Positions 5,181 through 63,990 of a DNA stretch of 64,000 nt are shown piece by piece. Position 1 is the stretch's first letter. Each line of letters starts with the position of its first letter. The stretch comes from a virus, in IMG/VR virus record IMGVR_UViG_3300046674_000532; one strand, written 5' to 3'. The translations under genes were made by a program, and so were the position numbers. The notes beneath the pieces are model-generated. The model did not search any database and was not told the origin of the DNA. It saw only the letters and a list, made by a program, of their open reading frames with translations.

Positions 5181-5305
5181 GCCTGTTCTCCGTCCTGCGG
5201 ATGCTGGTGCTGTTCGGTGGTGCTCCGGTGGTTGTGCTGGTGGTGGGTGATGAGGAGTGCGAAGGCGGTGAGGACGGCGGCGGCGATGCCGTCCGGCCAG
5301 GTCAC
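5177..5305 (-). CDS. possible 42-aa membrane peptide
   Basis: GTG at 5305 (GTGA overlap with protease stop) and stop overlapping the next ATG. Hydrophobic stretch IAAAVLTAFALLI. Below the ORF-track size cut-off as an independent ORF. Confidence 0.35.
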   Translation of the reverse strand: MTWPDGIAAAVLTAFALLITHHQHNHRSTTEQHQHPQDGEQA

Positions 5306-9556: not shown

Positions 9557-10660
9557 CTATACCGAGGGAACCTCCAGTCCAGCGCTGTCCGCGTACTCGT
9601 TCATCACACGCAGCGCCTTCACAAACGCACCCGTCGGCATCTTCCGGATGAGGTGCTGTGCAACGAAGTTCCCGTCGTCGTAGGGCAGGGTCCGCGGCGC
9701 AGGGTCCCCGCCGTCCTCGGCCTGCTGGACGGTCCGCGGTTCAGGGATCGGCTGCTCCGCCAGCACCACCGCGGGCGCATGGAGGTCCGGTGCGGTCTCC
9801 GGGACCGGAGCAGGGCCCGGCATCGGATCGGCACCTGCTGGCTTGGACTTGGAGACGTCCGGAATTATCACGCCGTGATATTCGGCGGGCCCGGCCGAGC
9901 GTTCCGGCGCCGGGTATGGCGCGGGTTGCGGCGAAGCCGACCGGGCGGCCGCCTGGCTTTGAGCGGCTTCGGCGCGCGCGTCGGCCTTCTCAACCTGCTC
10001 CTGCGGGGTCAGCTTCCCGAGGTTGCGGACGTGCTCCACCCTGCGTGCACCGGTGACGAGGTCCTTCTGCAGCTCGGGGGTGAGCTTCAGCAGGGACAGC
10101 TTGGTGGAGAGCGTGGCCTGCGGGATCCCGAGCCGTTTCGCGGCCTTGAGCTGGGACCCGTAGTGGTCCACCAACTGCTTGAGCGCGTGGGCCTCCTCGA
10201 GGTCCGTCATGTCGTCGCGGTGGTAATTCGCGATGAACGCGGCCTCGAGGAGGGTCTCGTCGGTGGCCAGCCGCGAGTTGTCGACCCTGACCGGGATGGT
10301 GGCCAGTCCGACGCGGCGGGAGGCCTCGAGGCGTCGGTGGCCGTCGATGACGACGTACTGGGCTCCGTCGTCGATGTCGTCGGCGCGGGCGGCCCGGTCA
10401 CGGAGATAGGCCTCTGTCGTTCCGACGACGATGGGCAGGATGATGCCGACCTGGCGGACGGACTCCACGGTCTCGTCGAGGTTGCGGAGGTGGTTGCGCG
10501 GGTTGTCGGGGTTGTCGCTGATCAGCGTGACGGGCAGTTCGGTGATGGCCGCGGTCGCTGCCGCGTCCCCTCCTATGGCGCTGTTGATGGCGTCGCGCCG
10601 TGGGCTGCGCCGGGCCGCGGCGAAGGCGGGCGCCGGGCCGAGGGTGTCGGCCTTGCTCAT
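9557..10660 (-). CDS. parB: ParB partition protein
   Basis: ParB-N box YVVIDGHRRLEASRRVG, HTH AAKRLGIPQATLSTKLSLLKL, 4-nt overlap with parA; carries one parS copy internally. Confidence 0.9.
   Translation of the reverse strand: MSKADTLGPAPAFAAARRSPRRDAINSAIGGDAAATAAITELPVTLISDNPDNPRNHLRNLDETVESVRQVGIILPIVVGTTEAYLRDRAARADDIDDGAQYVVIDGHRRLEASRRVGLATIPVRVDNSRLATDETLLEAAFIANYHRDDMTDLEEAHALKQLVDHYGSQLKAAKRLGIPQATLSTKLSLLKLTPELQKDLVTGARRVEHVRNLGKLTPQEQVEKADARAEAAQSQAAARSASPQPAPYPAPERSAGPAEYHGVIIPDVSKSKPAGADPMPGPAPVPETAPDLHAPAVVLAEQPIPEPRTVQQAEDGGDPAPRTLPYDDGNFVAQHLIRKMPTGAFVKALRVMNEYADSAGLEVPSV
9864..9882. repeat. parS-like palindrome copy 1 (inside parB)
   Basis: ATTATCAC-GCC-GTGATATT, an AT-rich 8-3-8 inverted repeat in a ~70% GC background. 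Confidence 0.7.
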
Positions 10661-11820
10661 CGGGTGGCCCCCTTCGCGACCTGCCGCATGGCCTCCGCCT
10701 GGTCGGACAGGGGTGCGTACGACAGCAGCGGCATCCGCTTGCGGACCGCTTCCCGCTGTTCCTTCAGATCACCGATGACGGCCAGGACTCTCGGGTCACC
10801 GATGGCCTTCCAGCTATCCAGGGAGGAGGTGGCGACGTAACCGCGGCGCGAGTCGTACAAATTGACGACCAGGCCGAGGTAGTCGACGTCCAGGCTGAGG
10901 TCTTCGCACAGGGCTTCGATCTGCTGGTCGAGCATGCTGTACGCGGTGGCGGAGGAGTCCTCGGCGAGGACGGGAATGATGACGCCGGACTTGCCCTTGG
11001 CCTCGTTGCGGCGGCGGCGCGCGTAGTAGAGGGCGGCGTCCATGGCGATGCCGAGGCTGGGCGGGCAGTCCACGACGATGACGTCGTAGTCGGCCTCGAG
11101 GGGACGAAGTGCCATCTCCAGGGCGACTTCCTTCTGGAAGCCTCGCTTGTTCGCGGACAGGACGGCGATCCTCGAGTCGAGGAGGAATCCGTCGAAGCAG
11201 GCGGGCAGTACGTGCAGTCGCTTCTCGAACCGCGGATCGTCTATGACCACGACCAGGTCGCGGAGGTCTCCCTTGTCCTCGCCGCACATGTGGGAGACGA
11301 GGCTGTCGTGGTCGGGTGCGATCTGCAGGACACCGAGTTGCTCGCTGAGGTGGCCTTGCGGGTCGTAGTCGACGAGCAGGACGCGCTTGCCCTGCTCGGC
11401 GTACGCCTGGGCGACGCCGGCGGAGATGGCGGTCTTGCCGACGCCGCCCTTCTGGTTGCAGACGACCTTGCGTTCGGCTTCTTCGTCCTGGGCGCCGTGC
11501 TGCGGGGAAGGGTTGGCGTCCAGCCACATCCGGACCGACTGCGCGAGGCCCTGGGTGTAGGAGACGGAGCGTTCGGTGCAGGCGTCCTTGAACGCGTCGT
11601 ACTGGCCGGACGGGAGCCATGTGGAGAACGAGCGGGCGCCGGCCGTGTCGATGTCCGGGCTGATGCCGGGTTCGGCGCGCCATTGGGCGATGCCCGCGGT
11701 GACGGCGTCCTGGATGTCCAGGCCGAGCTCGGCGGCGCGGACCTTGAGTGCTTGTTGGAGCGCCGAGGGCAGCTTCGACGCTACCTTTTCCCGGTCTCCT
11801 TGGAGATATGGAGAGGCCAT
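10657..11820 (-). CDS. parA: ParA partition ATPase with ~125-aa N-terminal extension (type Ia-like)
   Basis: Deviant Walker A CNQKGGVGKTAIS, LLVDYDPQG, VIVVDCPPS. The N-terminal extra domain is typical of autoregulating ParA/SopA. Confidence 0.9.
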   Translation of the reverse strand: MASPYLQGDREKVASKLPSALQQALKVRAAELGLDIQDAVTAGIAQWRAEPGISPDIDTAGARSFSTWLPSGQYDAFKDACTERSVSYTQGLAQSVRMWLDANPSPQHGAQDEEAERKVVCNQKGGVGKTAISAGVAQAYAEQGKRVLLVDYDPQGHLSEQLGVLQIAPDHDSLVSHMCGEDKGDLRDLVVVIDDPRFEKRLHVLPACFDGFLLDSRIAVLSANKRGFQKEVALEMALRPLEADYDVIVVDCPPSLGIAMDAALYYARRRRNEAKGKSGVIIPVLAEDSSATAYSMLDQQIEALCEDLSLDVDYLGLVVNLYDSRRGYVATSSLDSWKAIGDPRVLAVIGDLKEQREAVRKRMPLLSYAPLSDQAEAMRQVAKGATR

Positions 11821-16262: not shown

Positions 16263-16742
16263 TCAGTGCTCCCGAGCGTCCTCGTCGTCCGCCGGGTGCC
16301 ACTCCGGGGCACGCTCCGCGACCTGCCGGGACCGGCCCGCCATCCCACCCATCGCCCGGAACCCCGCCTGCGCCAACTCGCCCTGCAACCGGGCCAGCCG
16401 GTCCCGGTTGAAGCGGGGCGCCGCCATCAACTGCCCGGCCCGCACCCCCACCACCAGCGCCCGGTCCCAGATCTCCTGCACGTCCGCCGGATCCATCCCC
16501 GGGAACAAGTCCCGCGGCAGTTTCCGCGGCGTTCCCGCCGTGTCCAACTGGGCGGCCGCGATCAGCCCGGCCAGATGCTGGCCCGTCGATGCGGCCCGCC
16601 CCGCCAGGACGAGGTCGCACATCGCGTCCTGGCCGACGTCGGCCGACCACCCGGCCTTGACGACCCCGCCAGCGGCCGGACCGCCCACGGCCCCCGTCCC
16701 GATGGAGGCGGGCAGGGAGGTGGAGTCAGGGGTGTTGCTCAT
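16263..16742 (-). CDS. hypothetical protein
   Basis: ATG at 16742 overlaps the upstream stop (ATGA); MSNTPDSTSLPASIGTG..., 159 aa. Confidence 0.6.
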   Translation of the reverse strand: MSNTPDSTSLPASIGTGAVGGPAAGGVVKAGWSADVGQDAMCDLVLAGRAASTGQHLAGLIAAAQLDTAGTPRKLPRDLFPGMDPADVQEIWDRALVVGVRAGQLMAAPRFNRDRLARLQGELAQAGFRAMGGMAGRSRQVAERAPEWHPADDEDAREH

Positions 16743-17665
16743 GCTGCAGCCTCCAGCGGCGTAGCGGGGAACAGGGAACACACATCGGCGACCTGGGCCA
16801 GGTCGGCTTCCATCTCGGCGAGCAGCAGATCCAACTGCCCGGGTACCTCCACGAACCGCTCCCGCAACGACAGCCGGCGCACCCGCTCCGTACGCCGCCC
16901 CGGCACACGCTGCTCGCCCTCGTCGACGTCGGCGACCGGCAGCCGGGCCAGGAGCCGCTCGAACTCCACCGCCCACAACAGCAACTGCCCGTTCGCCTCC
17001 ACGGTGTGCGTCTTCACCCCCGACGGACACGCCAGCACCGACCCGTCATCCGCCACCACCAGGCCAGCGTCGACCAGGCCACGCTCCACCGCCGCGGCGA
17101 GCAGCTCCATCCGCGACGCCTCACGCGACAGGCCCATCAGCGTGACAATCGCCGACCGCTGCCAACCCGCCGTCCGCACATCCATCCGCGCCGCCGCAGC
17201 CACCCGATACGGATCCGCGTGCCCGGCCAGCGCAGCCAGAACGGCCAGCTTCTGCTCCGTCCGCAACTTCGCGTCCGCGGCCGCACCCATCACCTCGTGA
17301 CGGTGCCGGATGAACGCCGTGTGCCGCTCCGTCTGCGTCTCCGCGCCCCACACCCCGTGCGGCTCCGCCAACCGCGCCACATCCCCGTCCATCACCACGG
17401 TGTTGGCGTACGCGGCGCACTGCACCATCACCGGACAGTCCAGACACACTTCGACCGCCGCGGCCTCCCGCGCCCGGCGTACCGGCTGCCTCTCCCCACC
17501 ATCCACATCCGGAGCGAAATGCGCCCCCAGCGGCAGGTCCAGGTTCCCCGCCATCCGCGACGGCAGCACCGGATCCGGCGCACACCCCCGATACCGGAAC
17601 CGCGGATGCGTCTCCCACGCCGCACGCGCCACCGCCACACTCACCTGCTCACCGGTGCCCGTCAT
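16739..17665 (-). CDS. WhiB-like domain protein with long C-terminal region (possible HTH)
   Basis: Cys pattern C(APD)...VCLDCPVMVQC followed by GVWGAET. Later segment WQRSAIVTLMGLSREASRMELLAAAVERGLV is HTH-like. Confidence 0.7.
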   Translation of the reverse strand: MTGTGEQVSVAVARAAWETHPRFRYRGCAPDPVLPSRMAGNLDLPLGAHFAPDVDGGERQPVRRAREAAAVEVCLDCPVMVQCAAYANTVVMDGDVARLAEPHGVWGAETQTERHTAFIRHRHEVMGAAADAKLRTEQKLAVLAALAGHADPYRVAAAARMDVRTAGWQRSAIVTLMGLSREASRMELLAAAVERGLVDAGLVVADDGSVLACPSGVKTHTVEANGQLLLWAVEFERLLARLPVADVDEGEQRVPGRRTERVRRLSLRERFVEVPGQLDLLLAEMEADLAQVADVCSLFPATPLEAAA

Positions 17666-18368: not shown

Positions 18369-18999
18369 TCAGGCGGCGGAAATGACCTCGTCCGCGCCAT
18401 TCATCGGGATACCGAACCCGGCAGCGACAACATGCTGGAGGACAACCGGAGTACGGGAGAAACAGGCAACAGGCGGGACGGCGGTCAGTTCTCTTCTTGA
18501 TCCGGCTTGGGGGCCAGCCGAGATACAGCCGAAAGGGATATGCAGGACCTCGTGCGAGGAGTCGTTCCCTCTACTGGGCAGCTCGTCCTTCGGTACGGGG
18601 CGGTGATCACTGCTCGCCGCCCTCGGCGCCTGCGGCCAGGAGGCCGGCAAGGCTCTGGAGGTGGGCGGCCGGGCCGAGGTCGGTGTAGAAGGAGCCTGCG
18701 GGCAGCGGGGGCAACTGCGCGGGCACGGCCTGGTGCACGAGCGGCTGGTCCGCCAGACCGAGCCCCTTACCGGCGCGCGACCACGCCTGGCACGGCGGAG
18801 ACCAGATCTGCTTCTTCGACCGCCCCTTGAATGGAGCGGTCGGGTACTGGGCGACGTCGCACTGGATAGTCAGGTGGCCCGCCGCCGCGCGGGTCTTGCA
18901 CGCTGCGGTGTCCCACTCCAGCCCCACATCGCGAAGGCCAAGCAGCCGCAGCCCTTCCGACCAGCCACCAGGCCCTGCGAACCCGTCGAGGATCGTCAT
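18369..18999 (-). pseudogene. decayed DNA (cytosine-5) methyltransferase
   Basis: ORF 18607..18999 carries motif I (ILDGFAGPGGWSEG) and motif IV (SPPCQAWS), then stops after 130 aa. A second frame (18369..18650) retains a motif-X-like TAVPPVA. ENV, QxRxR and the target-recognition region are missing. Total span of 210 codons is too short, and GC3 drops in 18369..18600. Confidence 0.55.
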
Positions 19000-19955
19000 C
19001 AGGCGGCGCTCCTCTCTGCGGCGTTGGCCTGGGCGGCCTGTTCCTTCAACTGGGCGATGCGGCGCGTCAGGAGGTCCTCAACGCGCACGTCCATCTCGCC
19101 GACCTTCACCGTCTCGTCCAGAAGGCCGTGCTTCCTGGCGTCGGCAAGGTTCTGCTCGCACGACAGACGGTTCTTCCACCCGGCGTTGATTTTCTCCTTG
19201 AGGCCTTCCAGCGTGGTCCCCGCAGCCTGCTCCTGCCGGTGCACGTCCTCCCGCTGCTCTTCCGTAGGACTGGCAGGCACGGCATCTACCGCTTCCTGCT
19301 TCGCGGCCGCTACATCCGGCTCGGCCTCCACCTTGTCGTCCTTGAACTCGGCCTCCTTCGGCGCCTTCCAGTACGGAAGCGACGACTGCACCACCGGGGA
19401 CAGACGGCCCTTGTTGTACAGGGACAGGCCGAACTGATCACCCAGGTTGGTGGCCGCCCGCTTCAAGGCCTGCGAGTCGGCGGTCTTCAGCGCCAGGTCG
19501 TGAGCATCGGCCCGGGACGGCTGGTTCGTGGCGTCCCCGGTGGCGATGCCGTGCCAGTGGCCCAGCTCGATCCCGTCCACCTTCACCGACAGGCGAACCG
19601 CGACGCGGTAGATGACCGTCCACGCATCGAAGGGGTTCCCGTACGGGCGACCGTTCTTGTCCTTCTTCTGGTGGTCCGGGATGCAGGTCTCGGCGATCAG
19701 CGTCGACTCCAGCAGGTCGGTGTCGTGCCCGCCGAACCCGAAGATGCGGATCAGGTAGCGCCGAATGTCCCAGGCCTCCATGTGCGCGAAGCCCTTGCCG
19801 TCCGAACCCACCCGGTCCGGGTCAACGGGGCGCAGCAGCTGGGCGATCTGGAGGTCGGACAGGGTGCCCAGGCGGCGGGCCGGGGCCTGGTTTTGGGTGT
19901 GCGAGGTGGGGCCCTCCGCCGTCGTGCTGGCGAGGGCCTCGGTGGCCGGGGCCAT
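18999..19955 (-). CDS. Rad52/Sak-family single-strand annealing protein
   Basis: GFAHMEAWDIRRYLIRIFGFGGH and ALKRAATNLGDQFGLSLY match the Rad52-fold annealase core; charged coiled C-terminal half. Confidence 0.75.
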   Translation of the reverse strand: MAPATEALASTTAEGPTSHTQNQAPARRLGTLSDLQIAQLLRPVDPDRVGSDGKGFAHMEAWDIRRYLIRIFGFGGHDTDLLESTLIAETCIPDHQKKDKNGRPYGNPFDAWTVIYRVAVRLSVKVDGIELGHWHGIATGDATNQPSRADAHDLALKTADSQALKRAATNLGDQFGLSLYNKGRLSPVVQSSLPYWKAPKEAEFKDDKVEAEPDVAAAKQEAVDAVPASPTEEQREDVHRQEQAAGTTLEGLKEKINAGWKNRLSCEQNLADARKHGLLDETVKVGEMDVRVEDLLTRRIAQLKEQAAQANAAERSAA

Positions 19956-23821: not shown

Positions 23822-24790
23822 ATGCTCATTTCGCCCCGCCCGGGCACCGACCGGGACAACCTCCTCCAGACCCTGCGGTCCGTGCACACCAGCGCCTCCA
23901 ACGAGCACGGCCGCGGCTACGACAACGCCTACAAGCGGCTGCTGGGATATCTGGAGTGGGCGATGGGCGCAGCCCGGCTGCTGCGCAACCAGATCAGCAC
24001 CGAGGACCTGCACGCCTTGGTACTGACGAAGGGCCACGACACCCTGCTGAACGGCATCGGCGACCTCGAGGGTTCACGACGGGAACGCCTGGTGAACCTG
24101 CTTGTCGACCAAGAACTCGCCGAGCGCACCGAGGCACTCGAGGCCACAGTCAACCTGCTCCAATCACTGAGGCACCGCTGGCCAGGACACGAACGGTTCG
24201 TTGTCGCCGACCCCAGCTTCTACATCCAGAACGAGATCAAGCTGGCCGACGTCGACCTGCACCAGGTGCTCGGCATCCGGGAAGAGGCCTTCATCCGGCT
24301 GCTGTTCCCCATCGTGGTGGTCGACGAGCTCGACGGGCTGAAGGACGCGGGCAAGCCGCGGCCCCGGTGGAGGGCAGCCCACACACTCGGCCTCCTCGAC
24401 GGGGTCCTGAACGGCGACACCGAAGGTGTTCTGCACCCCGGAACCTACGACCCCAGCAACGGGGAGACCCTGGGTAAAGTCATCGTGGAAATCGTCCTCG
24501 ATCCTCCCGGGCATGTCCGCCTACCGCTGGCCGACGACGAGATCGTCGACCGGGCGGTCGTCCTCCAAGCCCTCGGCGGCCGCGACGTACGTCTGCTGAC
24601 GTGCGACACCAGCCAGCACACCCGCGGCTGCGCGGCCGGCCTGCAGGTGACGAAGGTCGCGACGAAAGACCCCGGCCCCGAGCCCGACTGGGAGGCCGAG
24701 GGCAAGCCGGGGACCGGCGTACGGGCGCAGCGCCGCGCCAGGCAGGAAGCCAGGAACGGCAGTTCCGCCGAGGCGCCCGCGAACTCATGA
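23822..24790 (+). CDS. PIN-like nuclease domain protein with N-terminal helical domain
   Basis: Acidic PIN-type positions RFVVADPSFY, IVVVDELDGLKD and RLLTCDTSQ; converges on and overlaps the integrase gene by 6 nt. Confidence 0.6.
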   Translation: MLISPRPGTDRDNLLQTLRSVHTSASNEHGRGYDNAYKRLLGYLEWAMGAARLLRNQISTEDLHALVLTKGHDTLLNGIGDLEGSRRERLVNLLVDQELAERTEALEATVNLLQSLRHRWPGHERFVVADPSFYIQNEIKLADVDLHQVLGIREEAFIRLLFPIVVVDELDGLKDAGKPRPRWRAAHTLGLLDGVLNGDTEGVLHPGTYDPSNGETLGKVIVEIVLDPPGHVRLPLADDEIVDRAVVLQALGGRDVRLLTCDTSQHTRGCAAGLQVTKVATKDPGPEPDWEAEGKPGTGVRAQRRARQEARNGSSAEAPANS

Positions 24791-25933
24791 CCCGGCAGGC
24801 CCGGCCTCCTTGACGGCTGCCTTCCCGATCTGCGCGAGCGGGTTGTTCTCGCCCTGGGCGTCGTCCTCGTCTACGTAGCCGATCAGCGCTTTGGACTGGT
24901 CGTCCCAGCCGCCGTGCCGGCCGATCTGCACGATGTCGACGCCCGCGGTCCGGGCCGACTTCACGAAGCCGCGGCGGGAGGAGTGGGAGCGCCACCGGCC
25001 CGGCAGCCCGGTCCGCTCGATGGACCGCTGGATGACGTCGGAGGCGGCCTCGGTCGTCAGCCGTCCGTCCTCGGCGCCGATAGGCTCACCGCCACGCTGC
25101 ATCTCCGGGTTGAGGTAGCCCCAGCGGTCCATGCGCAGGAACAGGGGGCCCACGGTGTGTCCGTTGTCGGCGAGGGCGGCAACCAGGGCGCGGACCGCGC
25201 GGACGGCGCACAGGTCGGGTTCGGGGTCGAGCGGAATGTCGGGGGTCTGCCACATCTTGCGCTTCTTGCGGTAGACGCGGACCTGCAGACCGCCGTCGGG
25301 GAGATCGGTGAAGCTGTCCGGCCAGTTCAGCGGCACGAGTTCGCTGCCGCGCGAGGCCAGCGCGTGACCGAGCAGCATCAGGGCGGCGTCCCGCTTCCCT
25401 GCCAGGGTGGTGCGGTCCAGCTCACCGAGCGCGGTGCGCAGGACGGTCCGGTCGGCGGGGCTCGCCTTCTGCGGGCGGGCGGCCGGGTCCTGGGCGAGGG
25501 CGAGCTGCTCGCGGTAGCCGGCCACGACCTTCCGGGCGCCCATGGTGTCCGGGGGCCGGTACCCGGCGGCCCGGTGGGAGGAGCGGATGGACGCGATGAC
25601 GCGGTCCATCGTGTTCGGTCCGTACGGGCGTCCGGTGCGCGGCCGCGGAGTGCGCTTCAGGTAGGAGAGGTACTCGGTGACGGTCTGCGGCGCAGCCGGC
25701 AGCGGGCGGCGGCCGACGGACAGGCACCATGCGGTGAAGCGGTCCATGTCGCCCTTGTACGCCTTGGTGGTCTCCTCCGGGATTCCGGCCTTGACATCCT
25801 GCTGGGCTTCCTCGGACAGCCAGGCGTCCGGGTCCTCTTCCGTCAACGGGACGGCGGGGGCCCGGTCTTCGGGGATGGCGGGCAGCCGGTCGTCGACCAG
25901 CTCCGCGTCGACCACCTCGTCGCGCATGCTCAC
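24785..25933 (-). CDS. int: tyrosine integrase
   Basis: Catalytic signature present: ALASRGSELVPLNW (Arg), WRSHSSRRGFV (HxxR), GRHGGW (His), ALIGYVD (Tyr). Confidence 0.85.
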   Translation of the reverse strand: MSMRDEVVDAELVDDRLPAIPEDRAPAVPLTEEDPDAWLSEEAQQDVKAGIPEETTKAYKGDMDRFTAWCLSVGRRPLPAAPQTVTEYLSYLKRTPRPRTGRPYGPNTMDRVIASIRSSHRAAGYRPPDTMGARKVVAGYREQLALAQDPAARPQKASPADRTVLRTALGELDRTTLAGKRDAALMLLGHALASRGSELVPLNWPDSFTDLPDGGLQVRVYRKKRKMWQTPDIPLDPEPDLCAVRAVRALVAALADNGHTVGPLFLRMDRWGYLNPEMQRGGEPIGAEDGRLTTEAASDVIQRSIERTGLPGRWRSHSSRRGFVKSARTAGVDIVQIGRHGGWDDQSKALIGYVDEDDAQGENNPLAQIGKAAVKEAGPAGS

Positions 25934-55259: not shown

Positions 55260-56882
55260 CTATCGGCGGCCGCGGAGGCGTTGGTCGCGGTAGTTGGAGG
55301 TGCCGAGGCCCTGGGTGGAGGGGTCGGCGAGTTCGGTGAGGGCGTGGACGGCGGCGTCCATGCGGTCGGGTGAGTCCATGCCGGGGATCCAGGTGACCAT
55401 CTGGCCCTCGAGGCGGGGGAATTCGCCGAGGTGGTGGACGAGGCCTTGGGCGTAGAGCTGGGCGATGGGTTCGGCGCGTAGCCGTTTGCCTTGCTTGGCG
55501 TGGACTTCGATGATCGATGGCATGAGGAGGCCGCGGGTTTCGCCTCGTTCGGCAAGCTCTTTCCAGGCCTGGCGGATGATCTGCTTGGCCATGTCGCCGC
55601 CGAAGTTGGCTTCGACGACGATGGCGTCGGCCTGGTACTCGATGGCGAGTTGGCAGGCGGCGAGGCCCCAGGTGTCGGCGCCCATGCGGTCGGATGCGTC
55701 GGCGAGGAGGTAGAGGTGGCCTTCGCGGTCGCGTCCTGCTGCGCACAGGCCGGCTTCGTCGTTTCCGTCTCCTTCTCCGCCGGCGTGGTCGACGGCGACG
55801 ATGCTGCGGGTGAGGTCGATGCCGCGGAACGCCATGGGGGTGATGCGGTGGTCGGTGATCCATGGCCATTTCCACACGCCGCCCTCGAGTGGGCGGGGTT
55901 TTTGCATGTAGAGGGACCACCAGACGCGTTCCCCGACGGCGCGGCGGATCTTCTGGAGGGCTTTGGTGCCGTAGCGGATGGGCCACAGGGGGCGGCCGAT
56001 GTCGCGGCCGAGGGCGTCGTTTTCGCTGTCGGCGATGGCGGGGAGGTCGAGGATGGTCCAGTCGTCGGCGTCTTCTCCGGCGAGGATGCGGCCGGCGAGG
56101 TCCTGTTCGTGCCAGCGGGTCTGGATGACCAGGATGGATCCGCCGGGTTCGATGCGGGTGTTGAGGACGGATGTCCACCAGTCCCACAGGCGGCGCCGCA
56201 TGGTGGGGGATTCGGCGTCGGCGGCGTCTTTGATGGGGTCGTCGACGACGGCGAGGTGGGCGCCCTTGCCGGTGAGGCCGCCGCCGACGCCTGCGGTGAC
56301 GAGGCCGCCTTCGAGGCGTTCGCCGGTGTCGGGGTCGGCGAGGTCGAACCGGTTCGCCGCTTTGCTGCCGGAGTGGAGGGCGAGGCCGATCTGGGGGCCG
56401 TAGGAGACGATCGCGTCGCGGATCCACCGTCCGTGGTCGTCGGCGAGGTCCGCGGAGTATGAGGCGATCATGACGCGGTGGTCGGGGTGCCTCGACAGGT
56501 ACCAGAGCGGCGCCCACCGGGCCGCACGCCGGCTTTTGCCGTGCCGCGGAGGCATGGTGATGAGGACCTTGCGGGGCCGGCCGCGGGCGATGTCGCGGAA
56601 CACCTGGTCGATCAGGTCCAGGTGGCGGGCCTGCTTCTCCTTCCCGTCGGTGAGGATCGCCGACATGGCGCCCGGCGACCGCTTGAGGGCCATGTCGCGT
56701 TCGACCCCGGCGAGGACGGTGCGGACCTCTCCACTGGCCCGGCAGGCGATATGGCGGCGCTGAGCCCGGTTCAGGCGCCGGTACTGGGCGACCAGTTGGA
56801 GTAGCTCCTCCGCTCCCTGGACGACGTCATCAACGTCCTCGTCGTGCCCCGGGCCGACGTCAGGTGTCGTCGCTGTGGTCAT
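55260..56882 (-). CDS. terL: terminase large subunit
   Basis: Walker-A-like PPRHGKSRRAARW, Walker-B/coupling ILVIQTRWHEQDLAG, and a C-terminal RNase-H-like nuclease half. Confidence 0.85.
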   Translation of the reverse strand: MTTATTPDVGPGHDEDVDDVVQGAEELLQLVAQYRRLNRAQRRHIACRASGEVRTVLAGVERDMALKRSPGAMSAILTDGKEKQARHLDLIDQVFRDIARGRPRKVLITMPPRHGKSRRAARWAPLWYLSRHPDHRVMIASYSADLADDHGRWIRDAIVSYGPQIGLALHSGSKAANRFDLADPDTGERLEGGLVTAGVGGGLTGKGAHLAVVDDPIKDAADAESPTMRRRLWDWWTSVLNTRIEPGGSILVIQTRWHEQDLAGRILAGEDADDWTILDLPAIADSENDALGRDIGRPLWPIRYGTKALQKIRRAVGERVWWSLYMQKPRPLEGGVWKWPWITDHRITPMAFRGIDLTRSIVAVDHAGGEGDGNDEAGLCAAGRDREGHLYLLADASDRMGADTWGLAACQLAIEYQADAIVVEANFGGDMAKQIIRQAWKELAERGETRGLLMPSIIEVHAKQGKRLRAEPIAQLYAQGLVHHLGEFPRLEGQMVTWIPGMDSPDRMDAAVHALTELADPSTQGLGTSNYRDQRLRGRR

Positions 56883-57363
56883 CCAGTGCGCCTTCGTCGC
56901 CCTCGTCGGGGGCTTCGTCGTCCTCGGGATCGGGGTCGCCTGCTGCTCCGATCAGGCTGCGGAGTTCGGCGATGCTGGCCTGGCTGATGGGGACGGCTCC
57001 CCCGCCGGGCCCGGACACCTCGGCGCGGATGGGTTCGGCCACCCCGTACAGGCGGATCCGTTCGGCGATGAGCCGGCGGGCCGCCTCGACGGCCTTGAGG
57101 TCGCCCTTGAGCGCTTTGGGCCACACGGCGGCCAGGAGGCGTTCGAAGCGGGCTCCTTCGACCTCGCGCAGGTTCTCGACTGCTTCCTTCTCTTCCAGCC
57201 GGTTGCGCTGGATGGCGCGCCAGAAGTCTTTGCGGGCAGCGCCGTCGTCGGCGTAGTCGAGGCGGTCGGCGATGGCTTCGAAGTCCATGCCGGCGAGCTT
57301 CAGTGCGATGAGCTGCTTGCGTCGCTGCGCGGTGACGGCCTGCTGGGCTTTGGATGCGGGCAT
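56860..57363 (-). CDS. terS: terminase small subunit
   Basis: 167 aa with an N-terminal HTH-like segment (RRKQLIALKLAGMDFEAIADRL) and acidic tail, overlapping terL. Confidence 0.7.
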   Translation of the reverse strand: MPASKAQQAVTAQRRKQLIALKLAGMDFEAIADRLDYADDGAARKDFWRAIQRNRLEEKEAVENLREVEGARFERLLAAVWPKALKGDLKAVEAARRLIAERIRLYGVAEPIRAEVSGPGGGAVPISQASIAELRSLIGAAGDPDPEDDEAPDEGDEGALDDHSDDT

Positions 57364-57501: not shown

Positions 57502-57627
57502 CTCCTGATGATCCCTGGTTTCCTCCGTTTCCTTCCCCCAGCAGGGGTGTTGCGCGTGGCCGGGAGGGGGGCCGGGTCGCGGGCCGGCGGGCGGTGCTGC
57601 TCCCCGAATTAGGTTGTCCATCTCATG

Positions 57628-57656
57628 TTGACGGCCCATCGGGGCTCCGTTAGATT
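57628..57656 (+). promoter_or_regulatory. sigma-70-type promoter for the plus-strand island
   Basis: TTGACG (57628..57633), 17-nt spacer, TAGATT (57651..57656); GGAGGGAG RBS and ATG at 57694 follow. A second TAGGTT box lies at 57610..57615. Confidence 0.6.
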
Positions 57657-57693
57657 GTCCATATCAACACGACAACCTACGGAGGGAGCACCG

Positions 57694-58098
57694 ATGCAGA
57701 ACCTGCGGAGCCTGACGGACAACCAGCTCGCCGAGGTGTACAGCGACGGCGACGAGGCCACCCAGGCCGCGGTGCTCCGCGAGGCCGCCCGCAGGGACCG
57801 CAAGGACGCACAGACCGCCCGCGACAAGGCCCGCTGGGCGGCCGTGAACGACCAGTGGATGAGCTGGGCCGAAGCGCAGTTCGCCGCCGCCGAGGCCGAG
57901 TGCCGCGGATACCTGCTCAACAAGGCCGGCCAGGCCGAGGGCATGACCCCGTGGACGCTGTGGACCGGCCCCGCAGCCCGCGCGACGCGGTACGCCTCCG
58001 AGGAGCTGCTGGAGTTCTGGGACACCCACCCGCGCCTGACCGTCAGCGAGTACCGCAACGAGCTGCGCCGCGCGAACCACGACCAGCCGGCCGCCTGA
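57694..58098 (+). CDS. hypothetical protein
   Basis: ATG at 57694 with a strong RBS (in-frame upstream ATG at 57625 also possible), 134 aa. Confidence 0.65.
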   Translation: MQNLRSLTDNQLAEVYSDGDEATQAAVLREAARRDRKDAQTARDKARWAAVNDQWMSWAEAQFAAAEAECRGYLLNKAGQAEGMTPWTLWTGPAARATRYASEELLEFWDTHPRLTVSEYRNELRRANHDQPAA

Positions 58099-58131
58099 AC
58101 CGCCCATCCCACCCGCCGAAAGGACACGACC

Positions 58132-58467
58132 ATGACCGACTCCTCCTCCACCACCCGCTTCCAGGCCCGCAAGGCGCGCTCCGGCTGGTACGTCCAGGAC
58201 TCCGTCACGGGCGACGTGTGGACGGGACTGTCCCGGCCCGGTGTGGACAACCTGATCGGCCACCTCGCCAAGGACAGGGCGTCCGCCCCGGTGGTCACGG
58301 CGGTCGCGGACGAGCCCGCCACCGCGGACGAGCCCGGCCAGCAGCCGCTGTGGGTGGAGATGATGGGCGCGGACTTCGGCGAGAGCCGTGGGCCGGTGCA
58401 GGGTTCGCTGTTCCAGGCTCCGGATGCGTGCGGAACGCTGGACCTGTTCGCCGCCATGGGCGAGTAG
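58132..58467 (+). CDS. hypothetical protein
   Basis: 111 aa, AAGGA RBS. Confidence 0.6.
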   Translation: MTDSSSTTRFQARKARSGWYVQDSVTGDVWTGLSRPGVDNLIGHLAKDRASAPVVTAVADEPATADEPGQQPLWVEMMGADFGESRGPVQGSLFQAPDACGTLDLFAAMGE

Positions 58468-58504
58468 CTTGTCTCTATCAGAACGACTATCTATGGAGGT
58501 TGTG

Positions 58505-58864
58505 ATGGGTGCTGAGCCCGCAGGGCTGCCGGACGCCGACGAGCTGATCGCCGTGGCGCAGGGGGCGCTGGCCGGCGGCACGGCCGACGACGCGCGCCGC
58601 GCGCTGGACGCTTACGCCCCGGCCGTCGACACGCTGGTCGATGCGGCCGCGGCCGCGGCGTGGCTGGGCATCTCGCCATCCTCCATCTACCGCGAGCGCT
58701 CGCGCGAGCGCGCGGACGGGACGCCCGGCTGGCCCGACCCGGACAGGAAGTTCGGCCGGTCGGGGGTCTGGAGCTACCGGACGCTGGTGCTGCACCGGGC
58801 GACGATGCCGGGCCGGGGTTCGGCCGGCCGGGGTCGTCCGCGTCGGGCCGGCCAGTCGGGTTGA
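58505..58864 (+). CDS. excisionase/MerR-type HTH DNA-binding protein
   Basis: AAWLGISPSSIYRERSR...GWPDPDRKFGRSGVWSYRTLVLH fits the Xis/AlpA-like HTH pattern; GGAGG RBS. Confidence 0.6.
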   Translation: MGAEPAGLPDADELIAVAQGALAGGTADDARRALDAYAPAVDTLVDAAAAAAWLGISPSSIYRERSRERADGTPGWPDPDRKFGRSGVWSYRTLVLHRATMPGRGSAGRGRPRRAGQSG

Positions 58865-58890
58865 CGGGGTTCTCACCCGGAAGATAGGTT
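58861..58890 (+). promoter_or_regulatory. promoter giving a leaderless ASCH transcript
   Basis: TTGACG (58861..58866), 18-nt spacer, TAGGTT (58885..58890). The ATG at 58897 is only 6 nt after the -10 and has no RBS. Confidence 0.55.
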
Positions 58891-58896
58891 GTCCAT

Positions 58897-59337
58897 ATGG
58901 ACGAGACAAGCTTTCAGGATGCCCTGTTCGCCACGGACACCGAGCCCACGCCGTACGTGCTCACCGTGAAGCAGCCCTGGGCGTGGGCCATCATCCACGC
59001 GGGCAAGGACGTCGAAAACCGCAGCAGGCCTGTCAACTACCGGGGCAAGCTGCTCATCCAGGCTGGCAAGAGCTACGCCCCCGAGGGTGACAAGTACCTG
59101 CGCGATCTGGGCATCACTCCCCCGGCCGACCTGCCGCGCGGCTGCATCATCGGCTCTGTCGAGGTCGTCGGCTCCACCAGCCGGTCCACCTCCGAGTGGG
59201 CCATGGACGGATACCAGCACTGGCTGCTCGCCGACCCGAAGCCTGCTGCGCAGCTCCTGCCGTGCCGGGGATCGCTGAGCATGTTCCGCGCCCCCGAGGG
59301 TTGGGAGCAGGCGTTCACGTCGCCTTCGGGGGCATGA
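58897..59337 (+). CDS. ASCH (PUA-like) domain protein
   Basis: VKQPWAWAIIHAGKDVENRS...GKLLIQAG... is the ASCH core pattern; its 3' end overlaps the convergent gene by 23 nt. Confidence 0.7.
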   Translation: MDETSFQDALFATDTEPTPYVLTVKQPWAWAIIHAGKDVENRSRPVNYRGKLLIQAGKSYAPEGDKYLRDLGITPPADLPRGCIIGSVEVVGSTSRSTSEWAMDGYQHWLLADPKPAAQLLPCRGSLSMFRAPEGWEQAFTSPSGA

Positions 59338-60406
59338 ACTCGAAACTGCGCGTGAGAAGGCGTCGGGGGTCGGAGTAGCGCTTCCTCAGCGAGCCCGTGA
59401 GGCTCTTGCCGGGCTTTCCTGTACTCACCTTCCCGGTCTCGCGCCAGCGTGGGGAGCGCACGCAGTAGGCGATGACTGCCGGATGGGCGACAACTCGCCT
59501 GTAACGGCAGCCTTGCTGGTACAAGTGCTGGCCGATCCATTCGGAGATACGGCCGCTGATCCCCAGCCCCTGGTAGTCGGGCAGGACGACGGACCGGTGG
59601 TCCATCTTGATGTTCTTCGCCTGGGCGTGCGGGAAGTGCATGTAGGCGCTGAAGGCTACGAGGTCGTCACCGATGAAGCCGCCGAAGCAGCGTGCGGAGC
59701 GGTTCAGGTCGGCGCTCAGATAGTGATGGCGGCGAAACAGCGGCCAGACGGTGTGATCGACCTGGTGGATGCGGAGTTCGAGCGCGGGGTGGGGTTGAAC
59801 CTGCCTCCACGCGAAGGAGTTGGCCGCGACGTCGAACACCCAGTCGGGCTGGAGCCAGTCGGTGACGTCGTAGTGGCAGGTGACGGCGACGAACTGGCGG
59901 TCCTGGCGGCGCACTGCCTTTTGCACCGTGTGGGAGGCGACCTTGGCGACCTGACGGTCGACGACCGAGGTGAACTCGTCGACGACGACCAGGCCGTCGG
60001 TCTCGGCGAGGGAGCGGGCGATGGAGGCACGGAACGCCTCGCCGTTGGACAGCGTGTGGTGCGGGCGCATCCACGCGGGCGGTGAGCCGAGGCCGACCGA
60101 GGTGAGCAGACCGATGATGTCCTTGATGCTCATGCTGGCCGGGAAGTCGTCGAGCAGCGACGCGTCCGGGGACCATACATAGTTCGCGGCCATCTCCTCG
60201 GGCCACACGTGCCGGGCCAGGGTGGACTTGCCTGCTCCGGAGGGTCCGACGATGAGACCGACGTTCCAGGGCCGGTCCTCGATGGGCAGGTTCGCGTCGA
60301 GGGTGTGGCCGGCTTTCTGCTCGATCGGGACGTCGAACATGCCGGCCATCTGCAGGACGCGGGCGGAGCTGCAGACGGTGGTGCTGACGTTGACTTGTGC
60401 GCGCAT
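59315..60406 (-). CDS. ABC-type ATPase fused to a GNAT-like acyltransferase domain
   Basis: Walker A GPSGAGKST, signature-like LSNGEAFRASIARSL, Walker B LVVVDEFTS. The C-terminal ~150 aa carry an acyl-CoA-pocket-like LPDYQGLGISGRI (Q-x-x-G-x-G/A-type). Confidence 0.65.
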   Translation of the reverse strand: MRAQVNVSTTVCSSARVLQMAGMFDVPIEQKAGHTLDANLPIEDRPWNVGLIVGPSGAGKSTLARHVWPEEMAANYVWSPDASLLDDFPASMSIKDIIGLLTSVGLGSPPAWMRPHHTLSNGEAFRASIARSLAETDGLVVVDEFTSVVDRQVAKVASHTVQKAVRRQDRQFVAVTCHYDVTDWLQPDWVFDVAANSFAWRQVQPHPALELRIHQVDHTVWPLFRRHHYLSADLNRSARCFGGFIGDDLVAFSAYMHFPHAQAKNIKMDHRSVVLPDYQGLGISGRISEWIGQHLYQQGCRYRRVVAHPAVIAYCVRSPRWRETGKVSTGKPGKSLTGSLRKRYSDPRRLLTRSFEFMPPKAT

Positions 60407-60421
60407 GCCGGGGTGTCCCTT

Positions 60422-60997
60422 CTATGCCATGAGGGCGCGGACGCGGCGCCCTTCGGCGGCCAGCCGCTCGAGGAGTTCGGTCTGCTGCTGCTCGTCCAGG
60501 CATTCGACGATGACGCCCCACGTTGCTTCGGTGTCCTCGATGGGGGCGTCGCCCTCTTCGGGGAGCTGCGGGGGGACGATCAGTGCGGCGACGTCTTCGT
60601 CGGTGTATCCGGTGCCTTCGTAGTCGCCGTCGAGGTAGGAGATGAGTTCGGCGAGGGCGTCTTTGTCGTTCTCTCCGAGCTCGGCGGTGCGGTTGTCGGC
60701 GAGGTTGATCCGGCGGGCGGTGTTGTCGTCGCAGACGACGACTTCGCAGCGGGCTGTCTCGTGCCCTTCGGCGGCGAGCCCCTGCATGGTGTGGTTGCCG
60801 GCCAGGACAATGAGGGGGCCGTCAGGGATTTCCCGGACGACGAGCGACCTGTACTGGCCGTTGCGGCGGAGGGATTTGCGGATGGCGTCGACGTCGCCGC
60901 GTTTCGCGTTGCCGGGGAACGGGGTGAGTTCATCCAGGGGGATGTCGGCGGTGCGGACGTAGGTGACGCCGGCGTCGGAGTCGGTGCTTTCGGTCAT
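60422..60997 (-). CDS. ParB/Srx-like nuclease domain protein
   Basis: PFPGNAKRGDVDAIRKSLRRNGQYRSLVV...VLAGNHTMQG matches the ParB N-terminal domain; acidic C-terminal half; first gene of a two-gene unit. Confidence 0.7.
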   Translation of the reverse strand: MTESTDSDAGVTYVRTADIPLDELTPFPGNAKRGDVDAIRKSLRRNGQYRSLVVREIPDGPLIVLAGNHTMQGLAAEGHETARCEVVVCDDNTARRINLADNRTAELGENDKDALAELISYLDGDYEGTGYTDEDVAALIVPPQLPEEGDAPIEDTEATWGVIVECLDEQQQTELLERLAAEGRRVRALMA

Positions 60998-61099: not shown

Positions 61100-61807
61100 A
61101 TGCCCGGCATGAGAGATGTGCGTGTGAGGGGGGCTGTGGCGGCGTGTGTGGCTGCTGCGGTGGTGGTGTTGGCGGGTTGCGGGGGCGGATCGGACGACGG
61201 CGGGAAGTCGAAGGCGTCGCCGTCGGTGTCGGCGGTGGGTTCGTCGCCGCCTGCTGAGGTGGAGCCGTCGCCGACGTATCCGCCGGGCCCGGAGGGGGAT
61301 GTGGACCGGGCCGTGGATGAGGCGGGTCTGGTGTATGACGATTCGTCGTACACCGATGCGGCCGCGTTCGTGCAGGACATCTGCGACTCGATGGTGACGC
61401 AGTCGAAGAACTGGAACCCGGCGCAGTGGCTGGCGGAGGGTGGCTATCTCGGGGATGACGGGGAGCAGATCCTGGATGTGGGGGTGCCGAAGCTGTGCCC
61501 GCGGTGGAAGTCGGCGTTGAAGCAGGCGGAGGCGGGGACGTACGTGCGGTTCATCTCGTCTGGGGAGTTCGAGGTGAAGGCGGATCCGGCGCCGTATGAC
61601 TCTGACAGCGATTCGGATGTTGAGGAGATCAAGGCGGGCACGTATGTGGCGCGGGGGCATTTCTCGGACTGCTACTGGGAGCGGACCGGGGCGGACGGTC
61701 AGATTATTGAGAATCGTGCGGTGACTCAGGCGACGCGGATGACGGTGACGTTGCGGGTTGGGGAGCTGTTCTCGAATGACTGCGGGACGTTTCGGCCGGT
61801 CGGCTGA
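61100..61807 (+). CDS. lipoprotein
   Basis: Signal peptide with lipobox VVLAGC. ATG at 61100 (or 61109); only the last 235 codons of ORF 60209..61807 are accepted. Confidence 0.7.
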   Translation: MPGMRDVRVRGAVAACVAAAVVVLAGCGGGSDDGGKSKASPSVSAVGSSPPAEVEPSPTYPPGPEGDVDRAVDEAGLVYDDSSYTDAAAFVQDICDSMVTQSKNWNPAQWLAEGGYLGDDGEQILDVGVPKLCPRWKSALKQAEAGTYVRFISSGEFEVKADPAPYDSDSDSDVEEIKAGTYVARGHFSDCYWERTGADGQIIENRAVTQATRMTVTLRVGELFSNDCGTFRPVG

Positions 61808-62031: not shown

Positions 62032-63990
62032 CTACTCCCCTGCGTCCGGGCCGGGTCCCGGGCCGTACTTGCCGCGGACGGCCTGGCCGCTGCCGGGCAT
62101 GCGGTGGATGCGGCCTTCCTTGACCATCCGGGACAGCCGGTTCTCGAGCGTGGAGGAAGTCAGCCCGGTGAGGCGCTCGATGTCGTCCTTGTGCAGGTAG
62201 TTGACCTCCTCCCCCATCGGGTCGGCGGCGTCCTCGAGGACGGTGAGGATCTTTTCGTCTGCGTTGGGCCCCTTCGGCGGTCCGGTGAGGGTGGCCCCGC
62301 CGCCGGCCTGTCCCGTCTCGCCGTCTTCGTCGTCCGGGAGGATGGAGGTCCGGCCGATCTCGTCCGCGCGCTCGAAGTCCGGCCAGTCAGCGGGGTGGGC
62401 GATGGCGGTTTCGTCGATGTAGGGGGCGGCGGACTCGAGGATGAAGTCGCGCATCATCTCGGCGGCTCCGCCGGGGCCCAGGGTGTAGCCGAGCCCGTAG
62501 GTGGATTCGGGGTCCTGGAGGGCGACGCTCTCGTCGTAGATGAGGGGCCGGTTGACGTCCCAGGCCGGGGGGATCTGGCCGGGGTCGACGCCTTCGAAGC
62601 CGGTGGTGACGAGGTTGGACTGGTCGGAGTCGGTGCGGAGCATGACCAGGGAGCCGCCCTGGATGACGTTGGTCCGCAGGGCGGTTGAGCCGCCGAGCTT
62701 GTCGGCGTTCACGGCCTGGTTGACGATGGTGAGGATGATGCCGAGGGAGCGGGCCTTCGCGGCCAGCGCCTCCACGATGATCTTTGCTTCCTTGCGGTGG
62801 TCGACCAGCTCGGACAGCGGGACGTGGGCTTCGTCGAGGATGACGCGGACCCAGGGGCGGTCAGGGGTGGCGATGAAGTTCTTCATCTTCAGCCGTGCGG
62901 ACTCGGCGATCCGCCACTGCATGAGGCCGTAGGAGACGCGCAGGGCGTGCATGCACTGTTCTTCGCCGATGCCGGAGTAGCAGGCCATGGTCTCGACGTC
63001 GGGGTTGGAGGAGCCCTTGGGGTCGGCGTAGATGATGGCGTGGCCGTTGACGTGGTCGGCGAGGGCGACGATCTGGATGAGGCCACCCTTGCCGGATCCG
63101 GTGACGCCGGCGATGAAGAGGTGCTTGGCGCCGAGCTTGGGGTCGACGAACTGGATGCGGGCGGGGAATCCGGAGACGTGCTGGCCGATCTGGACGTAGC
63201 CGCCCTTGGAGATTTTCAGGACGTGGGTGCCGGGGAAGGGGACGCCCTCCTTGAGGGGGTTGTGATTCATCTTGCGGACGGTTCCGCGGCGGGGGTCTCC
63301 GGGGACGGGTGCGTAGGAGCAGAGCAGGGTGTTGGTGCGGAGCGCTCCGGCGAGGGCTGCGCGGTCGGGGACGGGGAGTTTGTCGAGGTTCTCGCCAGCG
63401 ACGACGTAGGCGACTTCACCGCCGGTGTTGGGGTCGGTCTGGACGTCTTCGAGGTGGGTGCCGGCCATGACGCCGCCGGTGCGGGCGGCCCATTTGCGCC
63501 AGGCGCCCTGGAGGGTGCTGGTGTCGAGTTCGGCGGGCGGCGCAAGGTTGACGGTGATGTGGCGTTCGCCGGAGTGGGCGCCGTCCTCGAAGGTGATCCA
63601 GGCGGCGCGGACCTGGTAGGGGGTGGACTGGTAGGCGCTGGAGACGGTGTCGGCGGTGACGGTGACGGACTGGCCGGCGGGGGCGGTGATGGTGCCTTTC
63701 CAGCGGGTCGTGGACAGGGTGCGGATCTCGATGTTCTGGCTTTTGTGGGTGCCGTTGTCGAGGTTGGAGATGATCTGGTGCCAGCGGTAGGCGATCTGTT
63801 CGGCGGGGGTCAGCGGTCCGGCGGCTGCCTTGGGTGCGGGGCCGACGGGGGTGGGGGCGGGCTGTTTGGGGGTGCGGACGCGGCCGAGGACCTTGCGGAG
63901 TTTGAGGGGGACGAAGCCGACGGCGGCCAGCCAGCCGAGGGAGACGATGCCGGGGATCGGGTTGGCGGCGATGTCGGCGACGCCGAGCAT
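62032..63990 (-). CDS. FtsK/SpoIIIE (TraB-like) DNA translocase; the start may lie beyond the right edge
   Basis: N-terminal hydrophobic segments, Walker A FIAGVTGSGKGG, Walker B RVILDEAHV, C-terminal winged-helix-like LTSSTLENRLSRMVKEGRI. The frame stays open upstream of 63990 to the window end. Confidence 0.8.
   Translation of the reverse strand: MLGVADIAANPIPGIVSLGWLAAVGFVPLKLRKVLGRVRTPKQPAPTPVGPAPKAAAGPLTPAEQIAYRWHQIISNLDNGTHKSQNIEIRTLSTTRWKGTITAPAGQSVTVTADTVSSAYQSTPYQVRAAWITFEDGAHSGERHITVNLAPPAELDTSTLQGAWRKWAARTGGVMAGTHLEDVQTDPNTGGEVAYVVAGENLDKLPVPDRAALAGALRTNTLLCSYAPVPGDPRRGTVRKMNHNPLKEGVPFPGTHVLKISKGGYVQIGQHVSGFPARIQFVDPKLGAKHLFIAGVTGSGKGGLIQIVALADHVNGHAIIYADPKGSSNPDVETMACYSGIGEEQCMHALRVSYGLMQWRIAESARLKMKNFIATPDRPWVRVILDEAHVPLSELVDHRKEAKIIVEALAAKARSLGIILTIVNQAVNADKLGGSTALRTNVIQGGSLVMLRTDSDQSNLVTTGFEGVDPGQIPPAWDVNRPLIYDESVALQDPESTYGLGYTLGPGGAAEMMRDFILESAAPYIDETAIAHPADWPDFERADEIGRTSILPDDEDGETGQAGGGATLTGPPKGPNADEKILTVLEDAADPMGEEVNYLHKDDIERLTGLTSSTLENRLSRMVKEGRIHRMPGSGQAVRGKYGPGPGPDAGE

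Follow-up and report, generated by a model that had tools for sequence, protein, structure and literature searches.

Positions 58,897 to 60,997 of a 64,000-nucleotide (nt) stretch of viral DNA (IMG/VR virus record IMGVR_UViG_3300046674_000532; the whole stretch is referred to here as the window) encode a small ParB-like protein, a protein of 363 amino acids in which an ATP-binding cassette (ABC)-type ATPase is joined to a GNAT acyltransferase domain (ABC::GNAT) and, on the opposite strand, a protein with an ASCH domain. Comparison with related loci from phages, prophages and bacterial genomes established that ParB is a near-obligate partner of ABC::GNAT, and that ASCH is an accessory that recurs but does not belong to the core pair. 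With confidence slightly better than even, we take the ParB and ABC::GNAT pair to be an enzyme that adds acyl groups to nucleic acid after replication, its target being phage DNA that is about to be packaged. A preliminary description of this locus had suggested that the three genes write, and erase or read, an acyl mark on nucleic acid; its observation is confirmed, and its interpretation is partly supported and was largely anticipated, as a prediction, in the literature.

An ABC-type ATPase fused to a GNAT fold

The 363-amino-acid protein is 58–84% identical to many homologues of 360–390 amino acids, and matches PHROG 11143 (annotated as ‘unknown function’) collinearly over its full length (E = 1e-96; residues 4–358 on profile positions 2–349 of 357). 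The N-terminal domain is recognized by Pfam ABC_tran (E = 1e-7) and by many NCBIfam ABC models, and its helical subdomain is minimal. In an alignment of 51 homologues (A1), G54–K60, L119, G122, E123, D143–E144, D150 and H178 are invariant. Matches of the C-terminal domain of this sequence to Pfam Acetyltransf_1 and Acetyltransf_7 are weak (E = 0.006), and relatives of the protein carry precomputed Pfam GNAT matches. Within GNAT motif A (Q/R-x-x-G-x-G), aligned homologues share Q279 and G280 without exception and G282 and G285 almost without exception; a set of His, Arg and Trp residues is also invariant across the family.

A full-length AlphaFold2 model built from 51 homologues (predicted local distance difference test (pLDDT) score of 87.8) retrieved only ABC nucleotide-binding domains in Foldseek (MalK, SufC and MJ0796; E of around 1e-8), and residues 200–363 were therefore modelled separately to test the GNAT fold (pLDDT of 86.6). 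The top 50 PDB matches of this domain model were all GNATs (E from 8e-6; template-modelling (TM) scores of 0.5–0.65), as were 30 of the 31 PDB matches of a profile built from 68 C-terminal domains (A2). The preliminary description had based its assignment of a GNAT-style region on motif A, and both the intact motif and the domain model bear it out. As modelled, the protein joins an ABC-type ATPase to a genuine GNAT fold and, given these folds together with their intact, invariant motifs, both halves look catalytically competent.

A small ParB and a TRIP4-type ASCH protein

The 191-amino-acid ParB-like protein matches PHROG 723 (E = 5e-44). A single-sequence phmmer search against the PDB returned no match for it; the family profile (A5) was needed, and this matched the N-terminal domains of Noc, Spo0J and ParB (E = 8e-15 to 1e-11). 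The protein comprises an N-terminal domain of the ParB/Srx CTPase fold, an acidic linker and a conserved C-terminal domain of around 35 amino acids, and a Pfam scan gave no match to the helix-turn-helix (HTH) domain HTH_ParB. Its Box II reads AGNHT, with Thr70 in place of the usual Arg; across the partner-ParB family this position is Arg in 58% and Thr in 33% of proteins, and the majority sequence is AGHGR. The small ParB is not the partition protein, because the window encodes a separate, canonical partition pair (9557–11820, minus strand), which consists of a ParB with ParB_N and HTH_ParB domains (9557–10660) and a ParA-like ATPase (10657–11820). The term ‘ParB-like nuclease’, which had been applied to the small protein, is an annotation habit: nothing at this locus points to nuclease activity.

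The 146-amino-acid protein encoded on the plus strand matches PHROG 3193 (E = 8e-38) and, in a phmmer search of the PDB, the structures of the human TRIP4/ASC-1 ASCH domain (E = 4e-6); its score against Pfam PF04266 is 15.1 bits, under the cut-off of 21.2. The Lys, Glu and Arg of its octapeptide motif (K37, E40 and R42) are invariant in 17 module-linked ASCH proteins. This motif is of the Glu type and departs from the Thr octapeptide of the YqfB type (GKTxTxR). By sequence, the protein is an ASCH (PUA-like) domain of the TRIP4/ASC-1 type.

Conserved gene linkage across phages and prophages

Counted at E < 1e-5, ABC::GNAT has at least 7,476 homologues, and its GNAT domain alone forms 1,226 clusters at 50% identity. 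Relatives occur in at least 594 IMG/VR stretches and at least 593 species-genome stretches, as well as in 75 of 50,697 GenBank phage records, in which the phages have hosts from Gordonia, Streptococcus, Pseudoalteromonas, Leptospira, Burkholderia, Porphyromonas, Aeromonas and Tenacibaculum. Gene linkage was surveyed in 87 phage and viral loci using purpose-built hidden Markov models of each family, and the counts for ParB and terminase refer to the 66 non-redundant loci with enough flanking sequence. Of these 66 loci, 64 have the ParB gene upstream of ABC::GNAT in the same orientation, almost always as its immediate neighbour; in most of them the two open reading frames (ORFs) overlap at the junction, and in the window 15 nt separate the ParB stop codon from the ABC::GNAT start.

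The ASCH gene is less constant. It is present in 14 of 69 viral loci, lying convergent and downstream in ten non-redundant loci, and in 22 of 80 loci from an independent set of species genomes, in all 22 of which it is downstream and convergent. Set against a background of 126 of 50,697 phage records with an ASCH protein of this type, the association is far above chance, exceeding the background by about two orders of magnitude. As in the window, the 3′ ends of the ASCH and ABC::GNAT genes overlap or abut at other viral loci (L052, −74; L066, −41; L064, −20; L011, −4; L023, +25) and at many genome loci. Co-occurrence of the genes extends well beyond this genome.

Fusion proteins link the three components by evidence that does not depend on gene order. 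ParB::ABC::GNAT fusions are found in four separate clusters at 50% identity (P0326, P0330, P0350 and P0354), two further proteins carry the GNAT domain followed by ParB (P0088 and P0249), and P0316 and P0387 are in-frame ABC::GNAT::ASCH fusions, the ASCH domains of which have the YqfB-type K-T-x-T-x-R motif. An apparent ParB–ABC fusion ORF at locus L041 was rejected as an out-of-frame artefact of stop-to-stop segments.

Other neighbours vary. In 13 viral loci, including that of Gordonia/Rhodococcus phage Jace, ABC::GNAT is directly followed by a gene for PanD (aspartate decarboxylase; E = 2e-33) and a CoA-transferase-III-like gene, which always co-occur; in 3 loci (Gordonia phage NHagos, phiE255 and a Porphyromonas phage), a formyltransferase-fold gene occupies this position instead. 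These variable neighbours point to acyl or acyl-donor chemistry. Searches of the window for homologues of PanD, the CoA-transferase and the formyltransferase found none, and the window is a minimal form of the module, with ParB, ABC::GNAT and a convergent ASCH gene. As it holds no genes for donor synthesis, its module would draw on an acyl donor of the host, such as acetyl-CoA.

The module also has a preferred position: in at least 48 of the 66 loci, a same-strand terminase or portal gene is found no more than 3.5 kilobases (kb) downstream. In the Mu-like phage phiE255 and in a Porphyromonas phage, the module instead follows the tail genes, at the position where Mu carries mom. The location immediately upstream of terminase genes in most loci would suit an accessory of packaging or segregation that modifies nothing, with ParB marking or condensing DNA, the ABC domain helping to start packaging, the GNAT domain structural or vestigial and ASCH an unrelated moron; ParB-fold proteins and ABC ATPases do both act in DNA organization. 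We consider this very improbable, given that GNAT motif A and the set of His, Arg and Trp residues have been kept invariant, that donor-pathway genes (PanD with the CoA-transferase, or the formyltransferase) have been recruited beside the module, that ASCH is both enriched at these loci by some two orders of magnitude over phage records and found in fusions, and that the module is not beside terminase genes in Mu-like phages.

Some related loci have features of their own. In Streptococcus pyogenes prophage 315.4 (L002), the genes for ParB, ABC::GNAT, ASCH, one further protein and the large terminase follow each other on one strand, and a frameshift splits ABC::GNAT (4962–6031) into an ABC ORF (4962–5639) and a GNAT ORF (5549–6028) in different frames. 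Ahead of ABC::GNAT in Burkholderia phage phiE255 (L003), the partner ParB survives only as a truncated remnant, gp28 (4801–5001; E = 7e-10). At loci L018 and L021 the family-specific GNAT domain is encoded twice, once in the ABC fusion and once as a stand-alone copy (L018, 3635–4123; L021, 432–920). Gp89 of phage Jace (L001, 7214–7609, minus strand), despite its annotation as ‘helix-turn-helix DNA binding protein’, has an ASCH domain (Pfam ASCH, E = 1e-6), and its gene is convergent to an operon of ParB, ABC::GNAT, PanD and the CoA-transferase.

A proposed mechanism and its alternatives

In the mechanism that we favour, ParB and ABC::GNAT, read as a co-transcribed pair, would form the core unit. 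The GNAT domain would transfer an acyl group from an activated donor to the exocyclic amine of a base; conservation of motif A, which binds the CoA pyrophosphate, makes acyl-CoA the likeliest donor, and an aminoacyl-tRNA donor, as used by Mom, is also possible. The ABC domain would dimerize on ATP, and its ATP cycle would open a base in duplex DNA to the GNAT domain, by analogy with the ATPase requirement of TmcA on tRNA. The small ParB, which has no HTH, may serve as a loader or activator on double-stranded DNA, a role demonstrated by experiment for the phage ParB-dependent thymine dioxygenases. The ASCH protein would be an accessory that recognizes or hydrolyses the N-acyl base and, where it is encoded by a separate gene, would be transcribed from the opposite strand.

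The two arrangements of ASCH suggest different roles. A convergent gene on the opposite strand suggests separate timing, as expected of an eraser or of a function expressed in the lysogen. The in-frame ABC::GNAT::ASCH fusions suggest that the domain and the writer act in concert, with ASCH as a reader or in a processing step, and argue against a purely antagonistic eraser. Reading the module as a writer and an eraser is plausible, but unproven. A more specific proposal, which we regard as possible but doubtful, is that the module carries out an undescribed ATP- and ParB-dependent N-acylation of a DNA base, for which our best guess is N4-acyl-deoxycytidine, and that the linked ASCH protein is a dedicated deacylase or reader of this mark. 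On this proposal, the module would include the first enzymatic pair of writer and eraser (or reader) for an acyl mark on DNA, and its variants would install different acyl groups, such as a beta-alanyl group in the subtype with PanD and the CoA-transferase.

Several points weigh against an enzyme that acylates DNA. The nearest structural matches of the GNAT domain in Foldseek are generic protein and small-molecule acetyltransferases (RimI, Ard1 and Naa50), and the fold is therefore silent on the substrate; the ABC domain is most like the nucleotide-binding domains of transporters, and not like the DNA-binding ABC ATPases SMC, Rad50 and UvrA. Comparison of A2 with an alignment of Mom proteins (A4) by hhalign gave a probability of 1.4% (E = 0.036, 37 columns), with no match to PF25680, and NAT10 chains match A2 only at E = 1.8–2.5 over around 27 residues. 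To our knowledge, every characterized ASCH amidohydrolase acts on RNA or nucleosides and not on DNA, and if ASCH did no more than reverse the mark, fusing such a hydrolase to its writer would serve no purpose. The window ParB is without the Box II arginine that canonical ParBs require for NTP binding (PMC12704722). Finally, no biochemical or genetic work on any member of the ABC::GNAT family was found in the literature searched.

Two alternatives take up some of these points. One is that the GNAT domain acylates a host or phage protein (a defence factor, RNA polymerase or a packaging protein) or a small molecule (a metabolite, for instance a polyamine), with ParB and the ATPase acting solely in regulation. 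The best Foldseek matches, being protein N-acetyltransferases and small-molecule GNATs, fit this reading, PanD and the CoA-transferase could equally feed a metabolite pathway, and host proteins are modified by some phage GNATs (for example, Rac, as cited in PMC7824862). Such a target is nevertheless unlikely in our estimation: it would leave unexplained both the coupling and fusion to ParB and the linkage and fusion to ASCH, a base-binding domain, and the GNAT fold is uninformative about the substrate (PMC13219725).

The other alternative, an RNA target, would have ABC::GNAT acylate RNA of the host or the phage, such as tRNA cytidines, to aid takeover or counter defence, with ASCH as the matching RNA deacylase. 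The activities of the characterized ASCH amidohydrolases, all on N4-acetylcytidine (ac4C) nucleosides or tRNA, speak for it, as do the precedents of TmcA, an ATP-dependent GNAT that acts on tRNA, and of the GNAT toxins, which acetylate aminoacyl-tRNAs; in phage Jace, tRNA genes lie near the module. However, the near-obligate and sometimes fused partner has the ParB fold, the known partners of which modify or segregate DNA; the module is consistently beside packaging genes or, in Mu-like phages, at the position of mom; and the Pfam scan identified no tRNA-binding or TmcA-specific domain. We therefore judge an RNA target to be distinctly unlikely, and retain modification of phage DNA before packaging as our preferred reading.

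If this reading is correct, phages and prophages in their thousands, with hosts from at least ten bacterial phyla, would carry a DNA-acylation chemistry that has never been observed; these hosts include Streptomyces, Nonomuraea, Gordonia, Streptococcus pyogenes, Burkholderia, Porphyromonas, Leptospira and Planctomycetes. Such a modification would bear on the evasion of restriction and CRISPR, on sequencing signals and on the building of enzyme tools. Pseudoalteromonas phage SL25 and Leptospira phage LE3 are, like Jace and NHagos, cultured phages that bear the module. The hypothesis is directly testable with cultured phages (for example, Jace and NHagos) owing to three recent results, which also serve as experimental precedents for the proposed mechanism: the action of Mom on double-stranded DNA, the activation of a DNA-modifying enzyme by a phage ParB, and the deacylation of ac4C in tRNA by ASCH proteins.

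Layout and genomic context of the locus

The coordinates of the locus are given in Table 1. The three ORFs, the sequence motifs and the tail-to-tail overlap that had been described are all present, and an independent gene caller predicted the same three genes on two metagenome contigs that encode an identical 363-amino-acid protein; identical copies of this protein are found on JGI and Logan contigs.

Table 1 Features of the module and of the adjacent terminase genes in the window
Feature	Position	Strand	Residues or size	Details
Small ParB-like gene	60422–60997	−	191 amino acids	ORF list and PHROG 723
ABC::GNAT gene	59315–60406	−	363 amino acids	ORF list and PHROG 11143
ABC-type ATPase domain	59807–60406	−	1 to around 200	As modelled
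Walker A	60221–60247	−	54–62	GPSGAGKST
ABC signature	60038–60052	−	119–123	LSNGE
Walker B with catalytic Glu	59966–59989	−	140–147	VVVDEFTS
H-loop of ABC domain			H178	
GNAT acyltransferase domain	59315–59809	−	Around 200–363	As modelled
Family-specific motif of GNAT domain			227–231	HHYLS
GNAT motif A	59549–59575	−	278–286	YQGLGISGR
ASCH gene	58897–59337	+	146 amino acids	ORF list and PHROG 3193
Octapeptide motif of ASCH	59002–59022	+	G36-K37-D-V-E40-N-R42	GxKxxExR
Overlap of convergent ASCH and ABC::GNAT 3′ ends	59315–59337		23 nt	Stop codons counted
Candidate promoter of leaderless ASCH transcript	58861–58890	+		TTGACG (58861–58866), 18 nt, TAGGTT (58885–58890), 6 nt, ATG (58897); read from sequence
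Putative small terminase or HTH gene	56860–57363	−	167 amino acids	Overlaps large terminase gene; directly before it
Large terminase	55260–56882	−		PHROG 38 (E = 8e-102); Pfam Terminase_6N/6C

The preliminary description had placed the ParB and ABC::GNAT pair just upstream of a terminase operon. The terminase genes are there, but a 1.95-kb block of four plus-strand genes (57625–59337), the last of which is the ASCH gene, lies between them and the pair; the label of the putative small terminase is positional, and draws also on HTH-type homologues at phage genome ends. The leaderless promoter that had been assigned to the ASCH gene is a plausible match to the consensus, but was not reported by a sigma-70 consensus scan, which neither supports nor excludes it.

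The window, which is of metagenomic origin, has a G+C content of around 69%, and a megablast search against phages found no close relative of it. PADLOC returned only generic ABC matches (mad3 and mad8) in the window and hence made no defence-system assignment. Two WhiB-like regulators and a Rad52/22-family recombinase, encoded on the minus strand (1887–2564, 16739–17665 and 18999–19955), are typical of actinobacterial phages. An integrase-like gene is present at 24785–25933 (minus strand), and an element that carries it together with the ParA/ParB pair may be a plasmid-prophage or an integrating element. Between the small ParB gene and a TraB/FtsK-like gene (62032–63990), and divergent from the former, a plus-strand gene (61100–61807; G+C content at third codon positions (GC3) of 0.82) encodes a candidate lipoprotein (signal peptide; LAGC lipobox) and could serve in lysogenic conversion or exclusion. 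A 337-amino-acid protein encoded at 3366–4379 (minus strand) matches DUF5131 (E = 5e-103), a family of unknown function.

Comparison with known systems

TmcA and NAT10 are N4-cytidine acetyltransferases of tRNA and rRNA in which an ATPase is fused to a GNAT domain, and ATP hydrolysis is needed for acetyl transfer. The window protein has the same general plan, and an N4-acyl-cytosine product would fit the association with ASCH. The resemblance, which the preliminary description had presented as a shared architecture, is nonetheless one of analogy only: the ATPase of TmcA is a RecD-like superfamily 1 (SF1) helicase, whereas that of the window protein is of the ABC type and its partner is a ParB. 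Homology was rejected on the basis of the distant NAT10 matches of A2 and of a Pfam scan (E ≤ 0.1) that returned only ABC_tran and generic P-loop families for the ATPase and only Acetyltransf_1 and Acetyltransf_7 for the GNAT domain, and no Helicase_RecD, TmcA_N or tRNA-binding domain.

Mom (PF25680) is a GNAT-fold enzyme that acylates adenine in double-stranded DNA, with Gly-tRNAGly as the donor (PMC13219725). Like the role proposed here for ABC::GNAT, its reaction is the acylation of a base in duplex DNA by a phage GNAT fold after replication, in this case the glycylation of N6-adenine, and the module of phiE255 follows the tail genes as mom does in Mu. The two proteins also resemble one another weakly and locally around the HHYLS/KHYS motif. 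By contrast, Mom lacks both an ATPase and a ParB partner, takes its acyl group from aminoacyl-tRNA and not from acyl-CoA, and contains an HTH-like insertion that is essential for momylation; the topology of the GNAT-domain model shows no obvious HTH insertion. Membership of the Mom family had seemed promising from a BLASTP match (E = 0.018) and a shared ‘HY’ motif, and was rejected because the profile–profile comparison was not significant.

For the small ParB, the closest parallel is the 5mYOX/ParB system, in which the thymine dioxygenase needs its cognate phage ParB, a protein without an HTH, for activity on double-stranded DNA; activation is specific to such DNA and persists when residues of the NTP site are mutated (PMC13229309). 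Both ParBs are small, consist of a nucleotide-binding domain and a C-terminal domain, and are encoded beside an enzyme that modifies DNA or is here predicted to do so; the likeness between them is one of shared fold. The canonical NTP-site residues are dispensable in that system, and the Box II Arg is absent from the window ParB. The enzymes differ, as the partner is an Fe/2-oxoglutarate (2OG) dioxygenase in one case and ABC::GNAT in the other.

Among the ASCH amidohydrolases (E. coli YqfB, TthASCH, EOLA1 and TRIP4_ASCH), the window protein is closest to TRIP4 and has retained the motif residues Lys, Glu and Arg, whereas the ASCH domains fused in P0316 and P0387 have the YqfB-type motif. The known substrates of these enzymes are ac4C nucleosides and tRNA: deacetylation of ac4C in tRNA has been found for 19 ASCH proteins, TRIP4_ASCH among them, and requires the Lys and Glu of the motif (preprint 10.64898/2026.02.27.708502).

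The preliminary description knew of no characterized system of this composition, and overlooked a published prediction: that GNATs fused to ABC ATPases acylate a DNA base was put forward by Iyer, Zhang, Burroughs and Aravind (NAR 2013), as cited in Iyer et al. 2021 (PMC7824862). The 2021 paper names Tenacibaculum phage pT24 as an example, and pT24 is among the tblastn matches to the window 363-amino-acid protein. The domain fusion of the predicted system is the same as that of the window protein, with no essential difference. The window protein is a member of this predicted family of ABC-coupled GNATs, and the locus is an ordinary example of it that adds no new component.

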